Source: a virus
Virus genome (UHGV): UHGV-0136520
DNA length: 28,383 nt
Strand: one strand, 5' to 3'
A program made the position numbers and the translations under genes. Shown here in pieces: positions 1,733 to 7,013 of the stretch. Position 1 is the first letter of the stretch. Each line of letters starts with the position of its first letter. Under the pieces are notes generated by a model that was given only the letters and a program-made list of their open reading frames with translations, searched no databases and was not told the origin of the DNA.

Positions 1733-2260
1733 TCACTCCCCCTTCACGCCAATGCCAGCGGCGCGGAGTGCTTCTATGAAAACATCAAGCCCCTGATTAA
1801 ATCCGATAGCCTCATAAAACTGTTTTGTGTGCATGTCCGGTGAATTGCGATATTCGGGCAGCTTCACCGTCCGCGCCTCCAGTTCTGCTATGCGCTGCCG
1901 AGCAGACTGATAAGCATCGATAACCACGTCCAACAATTGCCCGTCACACAGCAGTTTGCTAAGTTCAGGCTTCCACGCTACACAGTCATCATCCGGGTCC
2001 TGCATGTTGTAGACGTAAGTATCAAAAGCACCCATAAAGCGCCCGAATCCACCTTTGTCGTCTACAAGCACTTGCCAGGCGCGGAGAAGAAACAGTTTTT
2101 GGTTACGATCTAAATCCGTTCGGGATAGCTCATCGGCGATAATGCTGATTTCACTACCGTGCCAGCGAGCATCGTTGCGTTGCGCCGCATGAAACAATTT
2201 CCAGAAATACTCGGTTTCTTTCTGGTCAGGGCGGCATTGCTTAATTGTATGGACTGTCAT
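1733..2260 (-). CDS. Hypothetical phage early protein, 175 aa
   Basis: Track ORF. Start chosen at ATG 2260 (MTVHTIK), which has GGAG about 9 nt upstream, rather than the track's GTG at 2269. Confidence 0.5.
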   Translation of the reverse strand: MTVHTIKQCRPDQKETEYFWKLFHAAQRNDARWHGSEISIIADELSRTDLDRNQKLFLLRAWQVLVDDKGGFGRFMGAFDTYVYNMQDPDDDCVAWKPELSKLLCDGQLLDVVIDAYQSARQRIAELEARTVKLPEYRNSPDMHTKQFYEAIGFNQGLDVFIEALRAAGIGVKGE

Positions 2261-2288
2261 GCTGCACACTCCTGTTTGTTGTGTGCTG

Positions 2289-2543
2289 TCATTGGGCTGC
2301 TCCTTGTCTGGCTCTGCTCAAGAGCTGGTTAAACATCATGGTTAGGCTGTTACTACACCCAAACGGCATATCGTTAACACGGTAAGTAGGAATTCCCTTG
2401 CGAACACCAGACTTCACGATCCGGCCGGTGCCATAGAGTTGCGATAATGCGCCAGCGACCGCGGGTGTCTTTTTGTTCATACCTTTGGCGATTTCACCGC
2501 TGGTGGTATTCGGATGAGCCTGGAGATATTCAAATACGGTCAT
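2289..2543 (-). CDS. Putative winged-helix DNA-binding protein, 84 aa
   Basis: Track ORF. Segment TSGEIAKGMNKKTPAVAGALSQLYGTGRIV looks like an HTH recognition helix plus wing. Its ATG overlaps the upstream stop (ATGA). Confidence 0.45.
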   Translation of the reverse strand: MTVFEYLQAHPNTTSGEIAKGMNKKTPAVAGALSQLYGTGRIVKSGVRKGIPTYRVNDMPFGCSNSLTMMFNQLLSRARQGAAQ

Positions 2544-2716
2544 GGCGTTTTACCTTTACGTTCCTGTTCCAGTTGCACCAGAGACTCTTTTAATGCTGCG
2601 AACGTAGCGTCCAGTCTGGTGGCGACTTCGCGCATAAGCGGTGCATGTTTTGGTGGTAATTCAGCAACGGAGGCAAAAGCCTCCGCTACGAGCTCTTTTA
2701 CCTTCATGCGGCGCAT
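2540..2716 (-). CDS. Small hypothetical protein, 58 aa, absent from ORF track
   Basis: Hand translation: MRRMKVKELVAEAFASVAELPPKHAPLMREVATRLDATFAALKESLVQLEQERKGKTP. GGAG lies 8 nt upstream. Start overlaps the end of the HD-protein gene and the stop overlaps the next ATG (ATGA). Confidence 0.4.
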   Translation of the reverse strand: MRRMKVKELVAEAFASVAELPPKHAPLMREVATRLDATFAALKESLVQLEQERKGKTP

Positions 2717-3243
2717 TGGCGCTGCTCCATCAACTCGTTAAAGCGATTCATGAACATGCCGTATGACTGGCCTGGACGAACTGGGTTGATGATGAATAAA
2801 TCCGTTGGGATAACTCCCTGGAGGCAAGGCCACACAGAACCTTCGTCAATCTCAAAATCGCGGCGTTCGCTGGCGAGCATCACCAAATCGGCATATTTAA
2901 CGGTCGGGTGTTGCTCCGTTGGCAGGCCAAATTTCTGACGAATAGCAGCGTCTACGCGAGTTTCGATCACCTGGTAATCCGGTAACAGGCGCTTAAGCGG
3001 AGAGGGAATATCCTGCAAGTAGGCTTCGGCTGCATCATGAAGCAGTGCTTCTAATGCAAACTCCTGCGGGACGAGGTGGCTGGTTAAAACGCTATGTTGG
3101 CCGACGCTGTAAAACTCAGGTAGATGCCCTGCAAAGCGGCATAAGTGAGACAGCGCAGTAGCGATATCCTCGATCACGATATCGTCCTGTTGGATATCGA
3201 GGTAATTAAAGTGTTTGCCGGATAATGTCTGAATGTAGCTCAT
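2704..3243 (-). CDS. HD-domain phosphohydrolase (YfdR-like 5'-deoxynucleotidase family), 179 aa
   Basis: HD-domain signature: conserved His residues (ALSHLCRFAGH, HSVLTSH) followed by the HD dyad in LLHDAAEAY. Start chosen at ATG 3243 with GGAG 8 nt upstream. Confidence 0.65.
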   Translation of the reverse strand: MSYIQTLSGKHFNYLDIQQDDIVIEDIATALSHLCRFAGHLPEFYSVGQHSVLTSHLVPQEFALEALLHDAAEAYLQDIPSPLKRLLPDYQVIETRVDAAIRQKFGLPTEQHPTVKYADLVMLASERRDFEIDEGSVWPCLQGVIPTDLFIINPVRPGQSYGMFMNRFNELMEQRQCAA

Positions 3244-3335
3244 GGTTTTCTCCATATTGGCGCGCTGCACCGCGCAGATTTTGGTTGCACGAATCCCTCG
3301 CCGGGTGGCGATAATTAATGGAATTACGCTTCAAT

Positions 3336-3359
3336 AAATCCCCGCGGCGCCGGGGATTT
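3336..3359. repeat. Perfect 24-bp palindrome between the YfdQ-like and HD-protein genes
   Basis: AAATCCCCGCGGCGCCGGGGATTT is fully self-complementary. It sits in the 100-bp spacer inside the leftward operon. Confidence 0.4.
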
Positions 3360-3371
3360 AATGCAGAGCAA

Positions 3372-4199
3372 TTAGGCTTTAAAGTTACCGATGAAAGTTT
3401 CCACTGATTCACCGTCGAACTTGCTGATCAGCAAATCGCGGAATTCGTTGGCGATCGCTTCTTCCTGTGCTTCCAGTTGGACGATGCGCAGAACAAAGCA
3501 GGGTTCATCGCTGGTCAGCAGGCTGTTACGCAAGCTAAAACGGCGTTCGCCCAGACCTTCATACGGCACACATTTGAATTCAAACGCCACAGGCATTACG
3601 TCTTTGCTGCTTGCTTCAACGCTTTGCATCAGGGATTTTTTACCAGCGAAATCACTAGTTTCATGGTCCTGCTGGGTTGCTTGTTGAATGGTGATACGAC
3701 GCACAGCCTGAGCCGCCTGGGAAATCTGCATCGTATTGCCATCAGCATCAAACGCCAGCAGGTAATCGCTCCAGTCTTCCAGCCATTCAGCAATTTGCTT
3801 TTGCTTCAGACGTTGACCATCGATCTGCAGTAACGCGCGGAACGGGGCGGTTTTCTTCAGGGTGATTGAAGCAACGTTATCGGCGTGACCGGGATTATCC
3901 AGGGTGCCGATATTGAACACTGAACGGGCGGTCATGTTGTCAGCGTCAATGAAGCAACGAGCTGGCTCACTGTCGCTGGCGTAACCTTTAGAATAACGTG
4001 CGAAGTCGTCAATACTGGTTGTTGTCATTGCACCACGGAAGCGGAAACGCTCCAGAGAAAAGCGCTCAAGGCTTTCAACGTTAGTACCATCTGGCAGCAA
4101 TGCGGTCGGGCAAGCCAGGCCATGAATATCATTCAGGTGGTAGCCAGAAAGGACCAGGTCTTTTACCTGCTGAAATGTACCGCTGTCTAACTGAGACAT
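3372..4199 (-). CDS. YfdQ-like prophage protein (DUF2303-type), 275 aa
   Basis: Track ORF. Length and sequence match my recollection of E. coli CPS-53/KplE1 prophage YfdQ (about 274 aa). Sits next to the YfdR-like HD protein, as in that prophage. Confidence 0.55.
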   Translation of the reverse strand: MSQLDSGTFQQVKDLVLSGYHLNDIHGLACPTALLPDGTNVESLERFSLERFRFRGAMTTTSIDDFARYSKGYASDSEPARCFIDADNMTARSVFNIGTLDNPGHADNVASITLKKTAPFRALLQIDGQRLKQKQIAEWLEDWSDYLLAFDADGNTMQISQAAQAVRRITIQQATQQDHETSDFAGKKSLMQSVEASSKDVMPVAFEFKCVPYEGLGERRFSLRNSLLTSDEPCFVLRIVQLEAQEEAIANEFRDLLISKFDGESVETFIGNFKA

Positions 4200-4255: not shown

Positions 4256-4627
4256 TCACTGAGCCGCTTTAAGCTTTCCATCCACCGCGCCAGTGATCCC
4301 GAACAGCTGACCCTGATCTTCCTGCAGGATAGTGAGCTTCCCCCCTTTGTTGACCCACATCGGGGTTTCGGTTGTGTCCTCTTCGGAGGCTTTACCACGC
4401 GGTGTCGGGGTGCTGTAGTTCAGCTTGTGCTTGATCTTGACGCGCTTCTCTTCAACGGAATTACCCATACGCTCAAAATCAAATGTGAGGACTACTTTGC
4501 CTTTGTTGCCGTTGTTCAGAACGCCAAGCGCGGTGGTATTAAGTGCTGCCGCGATTTTGTTCATGAACACGCCGGCATCCAGTTCGCCAAGAAAATCTGG
4601 CACTACGGTCATGCGGTCATTACTCAT
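4256..4627 (-). CDS. Hypothetical early protein, 123 aa (YfdP-like by position)
   Basis: Track ORF with SD GAGGGT 6 nt upstream of ATG 4627. First credible gene of the leftward operon. No N-like arginine-rich motif. Confidence 0.45.
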   Translation of the reverse strand: MSNDRMTVVPDFLGELDAGVFMNKIAAALNTTALGVLNNGNKGKVVLTFDFERMGNSVEEKRVKIKHKLNYSTPTPRGKASEEDTTETPMWVNKGGKLTILQEDQGQLFGITGAVDGKLKAAQ

Positions 4628-5538
4628 GCTTTTACCCTCGTTAAGGCGGCTGCAACCGCCGAACTTTCTCCATACACAACAGAGAAGGGCACCTGCATTG
4701 GTCGGCGGCTTGCAGAGACCGCTTTCTTTTTGCCCGGGTGGATTGGGTTATGAGCCCGTCGCCCGGTGATGCCCTTTTCTGTTGCGTAAAAAGGGCGGTA
4801 CCGAGGTAGAACATTATCTTCGTCCCCCTTGCATAAGGTTGAAGACCTGGTACCGCCAAGACTACACACAGCAATACTGGAACTACGGTTATCACAGTCC
4901 TAAGCGTGATTTGGTTGTGGTTGCTGGTGCTGAACTCCAGCTCAGTGGCGCGGTGTTTCAATATCGTAACCGCCCGTTCCATCCGCGTTCGATCAGTCCG
5001 TATGCTCGCTTAGAACGTTTCGCCTGCTTATCTTTTCTCAACCGTTTGACGGTCAGCCCCGCCATTTACCACAACGAAGAGAGCACTGCCGGTGTTCGAA
5101 TCGAACGAACCTTTTCCCTGCCCAACCCTCCCAACTGAATGGGACTGTCTGGAATCGAACCAGCACTTATGCCTTGCTCGTCAATGCTCTCGTCGTTGCG
5201 CCCTGAAAAAGGCTGGCGGTTACCGGACAAGTGGGAAAACACCGGGCCGCCAGAACAGGGAGTTACTTGTTATTGCTTTAGCCTGCTTTTAACCACATCA
5301 GGCGCGGTGGTAGGTATCTTCGGGCGGGGCGCTGGCGACCAACCAGCTACAACCCCTACGGTATTTACACTCCACGCCGTGGGTTAACGGCTCCGTATCG
5401 TGGCTGAGTTTCTGTTGCTGGTGGTCAAGCCAGCTTCGCAACCCCTCCCGAAGACACCTGTCAACGAATCATCCGGTTATTCATATGCCACCGGCGGCTA
5501 CTTCGTGGGCGTCCTGCCTGTTCGCTGTTGATGAATTA

Positions 5539-5567
5539 AATATACCTGTGAGTAATTTTTGTGTAAA
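5539..5567 (-). promoter_or_regulatory. Candidate leftward early promoter (PL-like): TTTACA-17 nt-TATATT on the minus strand
   Basis: Minus-strand -35 TTTACA (5567-5562) and -10 TATATT (5544-5539) with a 17-nt spacer, inside an AT-rich block at 5520-5640. Hexamers read by eye only. Confidence 0.3.
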
Positions 5568-5679
5568 TACCTATTGGTATATTTTTATTTACCTTAATGG
5601 CAACTACTTGCTTTTAATTGGATTTTATTTAAGTAGGTGATGCGTGTTATGCTCAAAAAAACACCAGAAAGGGCTTGGT

Positions 5680-5886
5680 ATGGAACGTGACGAACTGGAA
5701 GAAGACCGTGCGGCATTCATAGCTGGCGAGATTGGCGGCGCAGTTGTCGAATTGATAATCGGCGGAGTAGTGATTGACCGTGATGCGATCGTCGATTGTT
5801 TGGAAAGAAAACGACGTGCGGTGGGCAACGTGATCCACAAAGGTGTTCTGCGAGACGCCGCTGCTATGGTGAGAAAAGGGCAGTAA
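5680..5886 (+). CDS. Small hypothetical protein, 68 aa, convergent with cI
   Basis: ATG at 5680 with SD GAAAGGG 5 nt upstream. Product MERDELEEDRAAFIAGEIGGAVVELIIGGVVIDRDAIVDCLERKRRAVGNVIHKGVLRDAAAMVRKGQ. Ends at the shared terminator hairpin. Confidence 0.4.
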   Translation: MERDELEEDRAAFIAGEIGGAVVELIIGGVVIDRDAIVDCLERKRRAVGNVIHKGVLRDAAAMVRKGQ

Positions 5887-5910
5887 AAACCCGGCTCAGT
5901 GGCCGGGTTA
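5885..5910. terminator. Bidirectional intrinsic terminator between the small plus-strand gene and cI
   Basis: Stem CCCGGC (5890-5895), 6-nt loop, GCCGGG (5902-5907), flanked by AAAAA on one side and TTAGATGTTATTT on the other. Read on the minus strand the hairpin is followed by a U-run, so it should terminate the cI transcript. Confidence 0.55.
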
Positions 5911-5960
5911 GATGTTATTTCATTAAGAGTTAGGTCTGTTCAACTATCCAAAAATAGCAG

Positions 5961-6671
5961 TTACAGTTTATTGTAAGCTATTGATTCATGGAGCAGAGCT
6001 TTACCCATGATATACAGTTGATCCTGATTTTCTTCAGTTATATACCAGTCTTTGTACACTGGATTATCGGACAGGACTGCAAGCTGCAAGCCCTGCATTT
6101 GTAATCGCTTCACGTGGAAGTGTTGTCCGAAAACGAACGCATAAACACCGTCCACCTTGAAATTTCTTATCGAAATATCGAAAAACAACCTGTCACCAGA
6201 CTGGATGGTTGGGCACATGCTGTCGCCATCTACAGTCATTACTTTAACATCATCCTGAGAACGATTCCCGAAGAGTGAACGAGCGTGCTCAGTAGTGAAC
6301 TCAATAGCGTGTAGAACCTCAACAAACTCAGAAATCATGAAAGACCCTGGACCTGCGCTCACAGTAAGATCGAGAACTTCTACACGATAAGTGTCGATAT
6401 TGCGGGCGGGTACATCAATATCCATATTTGAGGTTGGGCCAAGACCATCCAACCATCCTCTGCTGATTTTCAAAGCATCTTCGATCTGCCGAGCCGCTTG
6501 CTCACCAATATTCCGCTTATTAGGTTTACCAACAGGGTAAAGCATCCGAGAGACAACAGTCGGATCAAGCCCTGCATTTTCAGCAAACTCTTTCTGGGTT
6601 TTATAGCGAGTTACCAACTCCTGAAGTTTGAGGCGTCGTAACTCGAAGATGTCAGGCGATTCAGTTTTCAT
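5961..6671 (-). CDS. cI: CI-type prophage repressor (N-terminal HTH, C-terminal S24 LexA-like autopeptidase), 236 aa
   Basis: C-terminal domain carries the Ser nucleophile context GDSM (DGDSMCPT) and the Lys in HVKRL, typical of S24 peptidases. Divergent from a Cro-like gene across an operator-rich spacer. Confidence 0.8.
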   Translation of the reverse strand: MKTESPDIFELRRLKLQELVTRYKTQKEFAENAGLDPTVVSRMLYPVGKPNKRNIGEQAARQIEDALKISRGWLDGLGPTSNMDIDVPARNIDTYRVEVLDLTVSAGPGSFMISEFVEVLHAIEFTTEHARSLFGNRSQDDVKVMTVDGDSMCPTIQSGDRLFFDISIRNFKVDGVYAFVFGQHFHVKRLQMQGLQLAVLSDNPVYKDWYITEENQDQLYIMGKALLHESIAYNKL

Positions 6672-6770
6672 AATTCCATCTTACTTAAATTTACTTCAAG
6701 GTAAATGACTTGTGAGTATTGACATGTATTTACTTAAAGGTATATTTAATTTCCAAACATAGGAGGCGTG
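6672..6770. promoter_or_regulatory. Immunity operator/promoter region (OR-like) with a rightward PR-like promoter
   Basis: Repeated imperfect palindromes TTTACTTCAAGGTAAA (6690-6705) and TTTACTTAAAGGTATA (6729-6744), plus a partial copy at 6681-6693. PR-like -35 TTGACA (6719-6724), 16-nt spacer, -10 TATATT (6741-6746). AGGAGG at 6761-6766 precedes the cro-like ATG. Confidence 0.55.
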
Positions 6771-7013
6771 ATGGAAACGTTAAGAAATTACCTAAACGCT
6801 TTGTCGCTCGAAAAACAGAGAGAATTTGCAGCACGATGCGAAACCTCTCTTGAGTACCTGCGTAAAGCCATTAGCAAAAAGCAAAAGTTGGGAGCTGCTC
6901 TATCTGTTTCTATCGAAACACAATCTGGCGGCTCAGTTAGTAGAAAAAATCTTCACCCGGATGATTGGGAAAAGATTTGGCCTGAACTGGAGCATAAAAA
7001 AACAGCGGCATGA
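6771..7013 (+). CDS. Cro-like small HTH regulator, 80 aa
   Basis: First gene rightward of the operator region. ATG 6771 follows SD AGGAGG. Small protein with an HTH-like segment (ARCETSLEYLRKAISKKQKL). Confidence 0.5.
   Translation: METLRNYLNALSLEKQREFAARCETSLEYLRKAISKKQKLGAALSVSIETQSGGSVSRKNLHPDDWEKIWPELEHKKTAA

Follow-up and report, generated by a model that had tools for sequence, protein, structure and literature searches.

We describe a small gene in the immunity region of a lambdoid prophage, found in the virus genome UHGV-0136520 (28,383 nucleotides (nt), analysed as one stretch and hereafter called the window). The gene is an open reading frame (ORF) of 68 amino acids (aa) located between the leftward early promoter with its operators (pL/OL) and the repressor gene cI. 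It is a real, functional accessory phage gene, and its product is a remote homologue of the Escherichia coli protein YmgB/AriR in both sequence and fold, although outside PF10798 (YmgB) by the threshold of Pfam. The gene belongs to a cassette, delimited from its sequence, in which the ORF appears to travel as a unit with a predicted extended −10 promoter and a conserved leader before it and a hairpin after it. With regard to its role, we give about an even chance to the proposal that it is a minimal YmgB/AriR-like connector in a cassette of its own, acting on host SpoT and/or on the Rcs system. The elements of the cassette in the window are the following:

5624-5653, plus strand: proposed promoter of the small gene (from comparative conservation only)
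5654-5679, plus strand: A-rich leader with the Shine-Dalgarno sequence GAAAGGG at 5667-5673 (conserved)
5680-5886, plus strand: coding sequence of the small gene, 68 aa, a YmgB/AriR-like three-helix protein of phrog_3975; stop codon at 5884-5886
5885-5909, no strand assigned: GC-rich hairpin with its stem at 5888-5909, preceded by AAAAA at 5885-5889 (terminator scan and conservation)

The frame of the small gene is open over 5644-5886 on the plus strand, which gives 80 aa from a GTG start and 68 aa from the in-frame ATG at 5680, the latter placed 6 nt after the Shine-Dalgarno sequence. A preliminary description of this DNA, made from the letters alone, had reported the 68-aa ORF at 5680-5886 with a good Shine-Dalgarno sequence, on the strand opposite to cI and convergent with it; all of this was present as described, with cI on the minus strand and the ORF on the plus strand. 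In pairwise comparisons of 55 distinct alleles, the ratio of nonsynonymous to synonymous substitution rates (dN/dS) was 0.066 in the frame of the ORF, with dS of about 1, and exceeded 1 in four of the five other frames. The protein matched phrog_3975, a family of unknown function, over its full length (E 2.6e-37). Homologues numbered 583 at 90% clustering, and 67 clusters at 50% identity were found among 1.84 billion representatives; most of the full-length homologues were stand-alone proteins of ~65-70 aa. In addition, an identical 68-aa protein is recorded from Citrobacter freundii.

The relationship to YmgB/AriR was obtained from sequence profiles and from structure prediction. A profile of 27 diverse family members, compared with the PDB by hmmsearch, had a sole match, 2OXL (E. 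coli YmgB/AriR; E 1.1e-4 over 48 residues), and hhalign against the 88-aa AriR gave an E value of 1.4e-5 and a probability of 80%. The AlphaFold model, computed from an alignment of 47 sequences, reached a predicted local distance difference test (pLDDT) score of 94.2 and a predicted template modelling (pTM) score of 0.80. It contains helices at residues 3-27, 34-47 and 51-66, and this predicted three-helix fold can be superposed on 2OXL. The best match in Foldseek was again 2OXL (probability 1.00, TM 0.79/0.86), the next one having an E value above 1.8, and a search of the viral fold library BFVD returned nothing informative (best E 0.17). One member with 78% identity carries the UniRef name 'Biofilm development protein'. 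The product, which the preliminary description did not recognise, is thus recognisable as a remote YmgB/AriR homologue by profile, hhalign and Foldseek, and the profile search and structure prediction that it had recommended both point to 2OXL.

YmgB/AriR of E. coli (2OXL; PF10798) is a small connector that binds SpoT and activates the Rcs phosphorelay. It binds SpoT's TGS-helical domains, and a raised level of YmgB is by itself enough to cause accumulation of guanosine tetraphosphate (ppGpp) (Guiraud et al. 2023, PMC10704370). In the same study, the substitution R74G abolished SpoT binding and ppGpp accumulation while Rcs-dependent mucoidy remained intact. Arg58 of the window protein, located in helix 3, aligns with Arg74 of YmgB, a key surface residue, in the hhalign comparison and is invariant in the 47-sequence alignment of close and phi80-type members. 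The small protein differs from YmgB in that it does not have the first ~24 residues of the latter. Likewise, it is encoded by a monocistronic gene with its own predicted promoter in a prophage immunity region, whereas YmgB is encoded in the BluR-controlled ycgZ-ymgABC operon. No paper on phage YmgB-like proteins was found in our literature search. The assignment gives a testable function to phrog_3975, previously a 'hypothetical' family.

Upstream of the ORF, the pattern ATTTATTTTT-N~17-TGnTATGCT-CAAAAAAACA is kept in phages even where operators and repressors are unrelated, and in divergent genera. It is followed at fixed spacing by the leader CAAAAAAACAYCA, a GAGGG-type Shine-Dalgarno sequence, N6 and ATG. 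In the window, the parts of this block are a −35-like TTTATT at 5624-5629, an 18-nt spacer, TG at 5645-5646 and TATGCT at 5648-5653, from which we infer a promoter with a weak −35 box and an extended −10 element and with a transcription start expected near 5660. That the small gene has its own promoter, as had been claimed, is therefore very probable, TGnTATGCT and TTTATT being conserved across immunity types and genera, although the promoter is a predicted one. An ATG at 5649, within the −10 element, is in frame with the ORF in some loci and out of frame in others. Since this frame is not conserved, it must be the nucleotide sequence that is kept, which makes the 80-aa GTG form unlikely. That form was considered and rejected, as its start at 5644 lies ahead of the conserved −10 element and the upstream segment is not in a constant frame from locus to locus. 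It must be noted that an upstream ORF of 13 codons, MLKKTPERAWYGT followed by a stop codon, occupies 5649-5690 on the plus strand, where it begins within the proposed −10 element and extends over the main start codon. Relatives keep its first codons, but its frame with respect to the main ORF varies; it is probably untranslated if the transcript begins near 5660.

The surroundings of the cassette were also annotated, and the features to which we refer below are:

3372-4199, minus strand: YfdQ (DUF2303) gene
4256-4627, minus strand: YfdP-like gene, the first gene of the early-left operon
5462-5527, minus strand: structured RNA motif of ~66 nt at the 5' end of the pL transcript, outside the cassette (covariation)
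5539-5567, minus strand: pL, leftward early promoter, TTTACA-17-TATATT (promoter scan, 10/12; mirrors pR/OR1; annotated pL in relatives)
5543-5601, no strand assigned: OL operators for CI, with OL1 at 5543-5554 and OL2 at 5568-5579 (exact 12-mer; similarity to OR)
5961-6671, minus strand: cI repressor of the S24/LexA type, helix-turn-helix and S24 peptidase (Pfam Peptidase_S24, E 4.6e-17; phrog_4, transcriptional repressor)
6771-7013, plus strand: cro-like gene, with a YmfL/cII-like gene after it

The sharply AT-rich block noted earlier to the left of the small gene is indeed present. Its guanine plus cytosine content is 0.34 at 5500-5599 and 0.27 at 5550-5649, as compared with ~0.5-0.6 on either side. 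This block is pL with the CI operators OL1 and OL2 and a degenerate third site, because it mirrors the pR region and because a 12-mer is restricted to OL and OR. The −10 box of pL and the operator overlapping it are a mirror image of pR/OR1 at 6719-6746, and 16 of 18 bases agree (TTACTTAAAGGTATATTT at OR matches TTACTCACAGGTATATTT at OL). The exact 12-mer TACYYNNNGGTA occurs four times in the 28 kb, at 5543, 5568, 6692 and 6731, the last two being OR. A degenerate OL3-like site, TACCTTAATGGC at 5590-5601, was identified by reading the sequence and matches inexactly. Annotated pL/OL elements lie at the equivalent relative position in phi80, HK225 and HK639. Accordingly, the palindrome ATACC-N4-GGTAT of the preliminary description is real and corresponds to OL2, although its position is 5567-5580 rather than 5571-5584. 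Of the promoter-like hexamers proposed on both strands, the scan supported those of the minus strand (5567 to 5539, 10/12) and made no call on the plus strand inside the block. The block had been taken for the promoter region of the small gene, whereas it is mainly OL/pL and the gene's own promoter touches only its right edge, at 5624-5653. At the other end of the repressor gene, the minus strand reads TAAGAT-GGAATT-ATG immediately before the cI start codon (6672-6700); TAAGAT would fit as the −10 box of pRM, giving a leaderless cI mRNA as in lambda.

The cassette ends in the stem-loop AACCCGGCT-CAGT-GGCCGGGTT at 5888-5909, with 9 pairs, 6 of them G-C. The stem is followed by five consecutive U on the minus strand only; the plus-strand tail is UUAGAUGUUAUUU, a degenerate U-tract. 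In nearly all of 47 distinct downstream contexts, TAAAAA(A)CCCGGC-loop-GCCGGGTT follows right after the stop codon. Past the hairpin, sequences of different loci are at once unrelated, and the plus-strand tails vary among these contexts. Because only the minus strand reads as stem plus UUUUU, the hairpin would serve primarily to terminate the cI operon. For the small gene it would be a less efficient terminator at best, and it probably also ends the mRNA of that gene despite the poor plus-strand U-tract. The bidirectional terminator suggested before is thus right in that one hairpin is common to the small gene and the cI transcript, while it is canonical for the cI strand only. In lambda, a terminator of the tIMM type stands at the end of the cI-rex operon. 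The hairpin described here resembles it in that a GC-rich hairpin plus U-tract stops leftward pRM/pRE transcription ahead of OL/pL, and differs from it in that the stop-codon context (TAAAAA) of the convergent gene supplies the U-tract.

The gene order of related loci was established from 80 IMG/VR loci and three named phages, phi80, HK225 and HK639, all three of which carry the cassette. In many heteroimmune lambdoid prophages of the Enterobacterales, the cassette has a fixed position to the right of OL/pL, divergent from pL and convergent with the cI operon. The order is early-left genes on the minus strand, OL/pL, the small gene on the plus strand and its hairpin, between zero and three variable genes on the minus strand, the repressor gene (minus) and cro (plus). 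At least three unrelated repressor families, with different operators, are found beside it. Among species-representative genomes, 22 of 23 loci belonged to Enterobacterales, the remaining one being a short contig labelled as a Bacillota metagenome-assembled genome, and the genera with the gene included Citrobacter, Kluyvera, Enterobacter, Serratia, Rahnella and Ewingella. The gene is common in Salmonella and is found in just 17 of 5426 complete E. coli genomes, and the phrog_3975 family comprises thousands of prophage sequences of Salmonella, Citrobacter and Enterobacter. In phi80, an unannotated homologue of 69 aa with 45% identity lies between OL3 and gene 40A (locus L007, 2498-2707; NC_021190, 33348-33557, plus strand), and the −35-like element in the conserved promoter of this homologue overlaps with the annotated OL3. 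ST64B and E. coli FAM21845 have the same pL leader and no small gene, for which reason the gene is considered accessory; in this respect the earlier interpretation is supported, since it is present or absent among relatives. A further relative, locus L001 (E. coli O157:H16, NZ_CP062876), combines a closely similar repressor (phmmer E 7e-151) with the same small gene. Its early-left operon encodes a RelA/SpoT-domain protein (2227-3342, minus strand) ~800 nt downstream of pL; in view of the link between YmgB and SpoT this is curious, and it may be a coincidence.

In relatives, variable cargo sits on the minus strand between the hairpin and the repressor gene. Several pairs of cargo genes match the PADLOC candidate systems PDC-M66 (HipA-like kinase and DUF3037), PDC-M11 (ASCH-domain protein and partner) and PDC-M63 (DUF6932 and partner). 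Loci with cargo include L026, L030, L032 and L052, and other cargo with no match to defence models includes a ParA-like ATPase and coiled-coil or membrane proteins. In the window this slot is empty, the distance from the hairpin to the cI stop codon being 51 nt, and no cargo was found in ~20 loci with the same repressor. The preliminary description had placed the small gene in the rexAB-equivalent slot and had advised examining how variable this slot is. The hotspot proved real and variable; the small gene is not its cargo but the conserved element adjoining pL that forms its border. As with lambda rexAB and the defence hotspot, it lies within the interval between cI and OL/pL, where relatives carry two-gene candidate defence modules oriented like the repressor. 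It differs in lying on the opposite strand, in not being variable and in having no defence-model match, and so borders the hotspot rather than filling it. Lambdoid morons are promoter-gene-terminator cassettes, as exemplified by lambda bor and lom and HK97 gp15. The small gene is similar to them in forming a compact accessory cassette that has a promoter-like element, ends in a hairpin and is plausibly expressed by the prophage. It is unlike them in that it lies in the immunity region and not among the late genes, in its unusually fixed position across heteroimmune phages, and in a hairpin whose orientation suits mainly termination of the opposing cI operon.

From these results, we propose that a promoter of its own, situated outside the exact CI operators, would drive the small gene, which therefore would probably be expressed in the lysogen, expression early in infection being possible as well. 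Since the gene is conserved beside heterologous immunity modules, its target would not be immunity-specific, and a host protein is the likeliest candidate. The protein may act as a dose-dependent binder of a host regulator, like YmgB, with helix 3 carrying Arg58 as the contact surface. The target would be SpoT, with a shift towards ppGpp synthesis, and/or the Rcs phosphorelay, with capsule up and curli and motility down. As an outcome, host physiology could be re-tuned to the benefit of the lysogen or of the lysis-lysogeny decision. The activity of the promoter, the time at which the gene is expressed, the host target and the phenotype are all deduced here. It is known that ppGpp modulates lambdoid promoters, replication and lysogenisation. 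Rcs activation leads to capsule production and to broad resistance to phage adsorption (PMC12557735, PMC7553319). In addition, the ymgABC locus lies directly beside the e14 prophage and may have come from a phage (Tschowri et al., PMC3509220), and Salmonella has been reported to lack a chromosomal ymgAB unit (PMC3509220). One may speculate, at clearly less than even odds, that temperate phages of Enterobacterales carry a dedicated, constitutively expressed YmgB mimic that seizes SpoT/ppGpp and/or Rcs, and that ymgAB of E. coli is a domesticated copy of it.

Several observations weigh against this proposal. The 68-aa protein had no Pfam match even at E <=1, PF10798 included, and only 2 of the 27 family members touched PF10798 (best E ~0.016); the identity to YmgB is ~17-20%. 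Arg58 is not invariant in the alignment of the most divergent members. Common ancestry with YmgB is no guarantee of a common target, and even for YmgB the trigger and the role in physiology are poorly understood. As to the promoter, the consensus promoter scan gave no call at 5624-5653. The spacing between operator and promoter also differs, the centre of the nearest operator lying at about −44 in phi80 and at about −64 in the window. CI may thus repress the promoter, activate it or have no effect on it; activation, in the manner of pRM from OR2, is suggested by the geometry of phi80, but less so by the operator at about −64 in the window.

Among other explanations, a regulator of the phage's own switch, modulating pL or the cI operon or binding a conserved early phage protein, would suit the location of the gene in the immunity region, back to back with pL/OL, and the overlap of the nearest annotated operator of phi80 with the −35-like element hints at coupling to CI. 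We nonetheless hold it to be unlikely. With at least three unrelated repressor families and operators beside the gene, no immunity-specific protein or site could be what is recognised, no DNA-binding domain was detected by Pfam in the window protein or in family members, and YmgB, the only significant relative, works by protein-protein contact. Less likely still is an exclusion or abortive-infection effector in the rexAB-equivalent slot, the view of the preliminary description. The gene is accessory among related prophages and is located between cI and pL, where relatives hold candidate defence pairs, but PADLOC has no family that matches the 68-aa protein even at E <=10. Moreover, the gene is a conserved flank on the strand opposite to the cargo cotranscribed with cI, is found whether or not cargo is present, and has no partner gene. 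Its product has no enzymatic domain and no obvious membrane segment, as its hydrophobic helix contains charged residues (from the sequence).

The transcript itself could also be what matters: transcription from 5624-5653 would read through the weak plus-strand terminator and either interfere with the 3' end of the cI or cargo operon or be antisense to it. Such a role has a precedent in lambda, with OOP RNA and cII. The gene converges on cI, whose stop codon is 51 nt past the hairpin, and the window and most relatives have no proper plus-strand U-tract. The strength of purifying selection on the protein (dN/dS of 0.066 with dS of ~1) and the conserved Shine-Dalgarno sequence show nevertheless that the protein matters, and the sequence past the hairpin is unrelated between loci. 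We thus consider this explanation improbable, to the same degree as the exclusion effector, as a replacement for a protein function, although both roles can coexist and the transcript may have an extra one. Many loci adjoin pairs of the PDC-M66, PDC-M11 and PDC-M63 types, which might suggest that the small protein is an accessory, antitoxin or regulator of the adjoining defence cargo. This is the least credible of the alternatives, given that the gene is present without cargo in the window and in ~20 loci with the same repressor, that the cargo types are mutually unrelated, and that the gene has the opposite orientation and its own (predicted) promoter. In comparison with these explanations, a YmgB/AriR-like connector implies that at the place of the small gene the prophage probably adjusts host physiology rather than carrying a new defence system. 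The gene is then a phage-borne variant of a known small-protein fold, which is more ordinary than new defence cargo.

If the speculation on a YmgB mimic is true, the prophage would set the stringent-response and capsule state of its host. In consequence, lysogeny might be stabilised, the lysis-lysogeny decision biased or the adsorption of competing phages blocked. An action like that of YmgB would mean direct control, at the protein level, of host ppGpp or capsule synthesis by a prophage. Both ppGpp and capsule bear on tolerance to antibiotics, biofilm formation, virulence and sensitivity to other phages. Furthermore, the map of the interval between cI and pL is sharpened, as the hairpin of the cassette bounds the defence-cargo hotspot on the pL side, which aids the mining of such hotspots.

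Outside the cassette, a block of ~50 nt just downstream of pL is kept across immunity types and in SfV, SfII, ST64B, ZF40 and SPN3UB, as well as in an Aeromonas phage and in T5-like Providencia phages. The records inspected carry no annotation for it, except for a few labels as 'hypothetical protein' or terminal repeat. The RNA motif listed above at 5462-5527 was defined by covariation in an alignment of 19 sequences. It consists of a closing helix P1, an invariant GGC-AGGAC-GCC hairpin, the invariant junction CCACGAAGUAGCC and a P2 helix of 5 bp with a conserved loop. Both sides change in 12 of the 15 pairs, and 91.6% of the cells are paired, as compared with 18-42% when the partners are slid; none of 500 shuffles reached the observed score. 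The covariance model found one copy in the window, at 5459-5530 on the minus strand (93.6 bits), ~5 nt into the pL transcript, and none downstream of pR. Exactly one copy was present in 39 of the 65 loci searched, and at least 120 IMG/VR contigs carry its invariant 20-mer. Phages without it include phi80 and HK639, which have an annotated nutL and an annotated putL-like RNA there, respectively. By eye, the pL leader has no similarity to the annotated putL-like region of HK639 (HK639/HK022 put RNA). Over the whole window, Rfam gave nothing at the gathering threshold, and at E <=5 it gave only chance-level matches over 4550-5960; no paper with the invariant 19-mer was found in the literature search. 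The entire 153-nt leader folds no better than shuffled sequence (z 0.18), the structured part being visible only by covariation. The position of the motif suggests a cis-acting leader element of the early-left operon, and it is perhaps a more novel object than the small gene.

Between the RNA motif and the YfdP-like gene, ~830 nt (4628-5460, minus strand) contain no convincing ORF. This gap is a mosaic of blocks common to different phages; a 'ClpX C4-type zinc finger' gene takes the place of part of it in E. coli relatives, and similar unannotated gaps exist in ST64B and Stx2a_1447. A stretch of 131 nt (5069-5199) is 93% identical to sequence immediately upstream of an annotated tRNA-Arg in the Uetakevirus phages SPN9TCW and SPN1S, and an overlapping stretch (~5053-5205) is ~91-92% identical to Stx2a phages. 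The minus strand of 5069-5199 has two T-arm-like motifs, GGTTCGATTCC and GGTTCGTTCGATTCGAAC, and no tRNA was detected in the window by ARAGORN or over 4550-5960 by Rfam. At 4793-4870 the minus strand forms a long hairpin that ends in GGTACCGCCC-TTTTT, resembling an intrinsic terminator of the early-left transcript, and it gave a sub-threshold match to DicF (17 bits, E 1.1). A block with ~76% similarity to it is present in the early-left operons of loci L001, L016, L019, L020 and L023, and the hairpin could be a DicF-like small RNA or a plain terminator.

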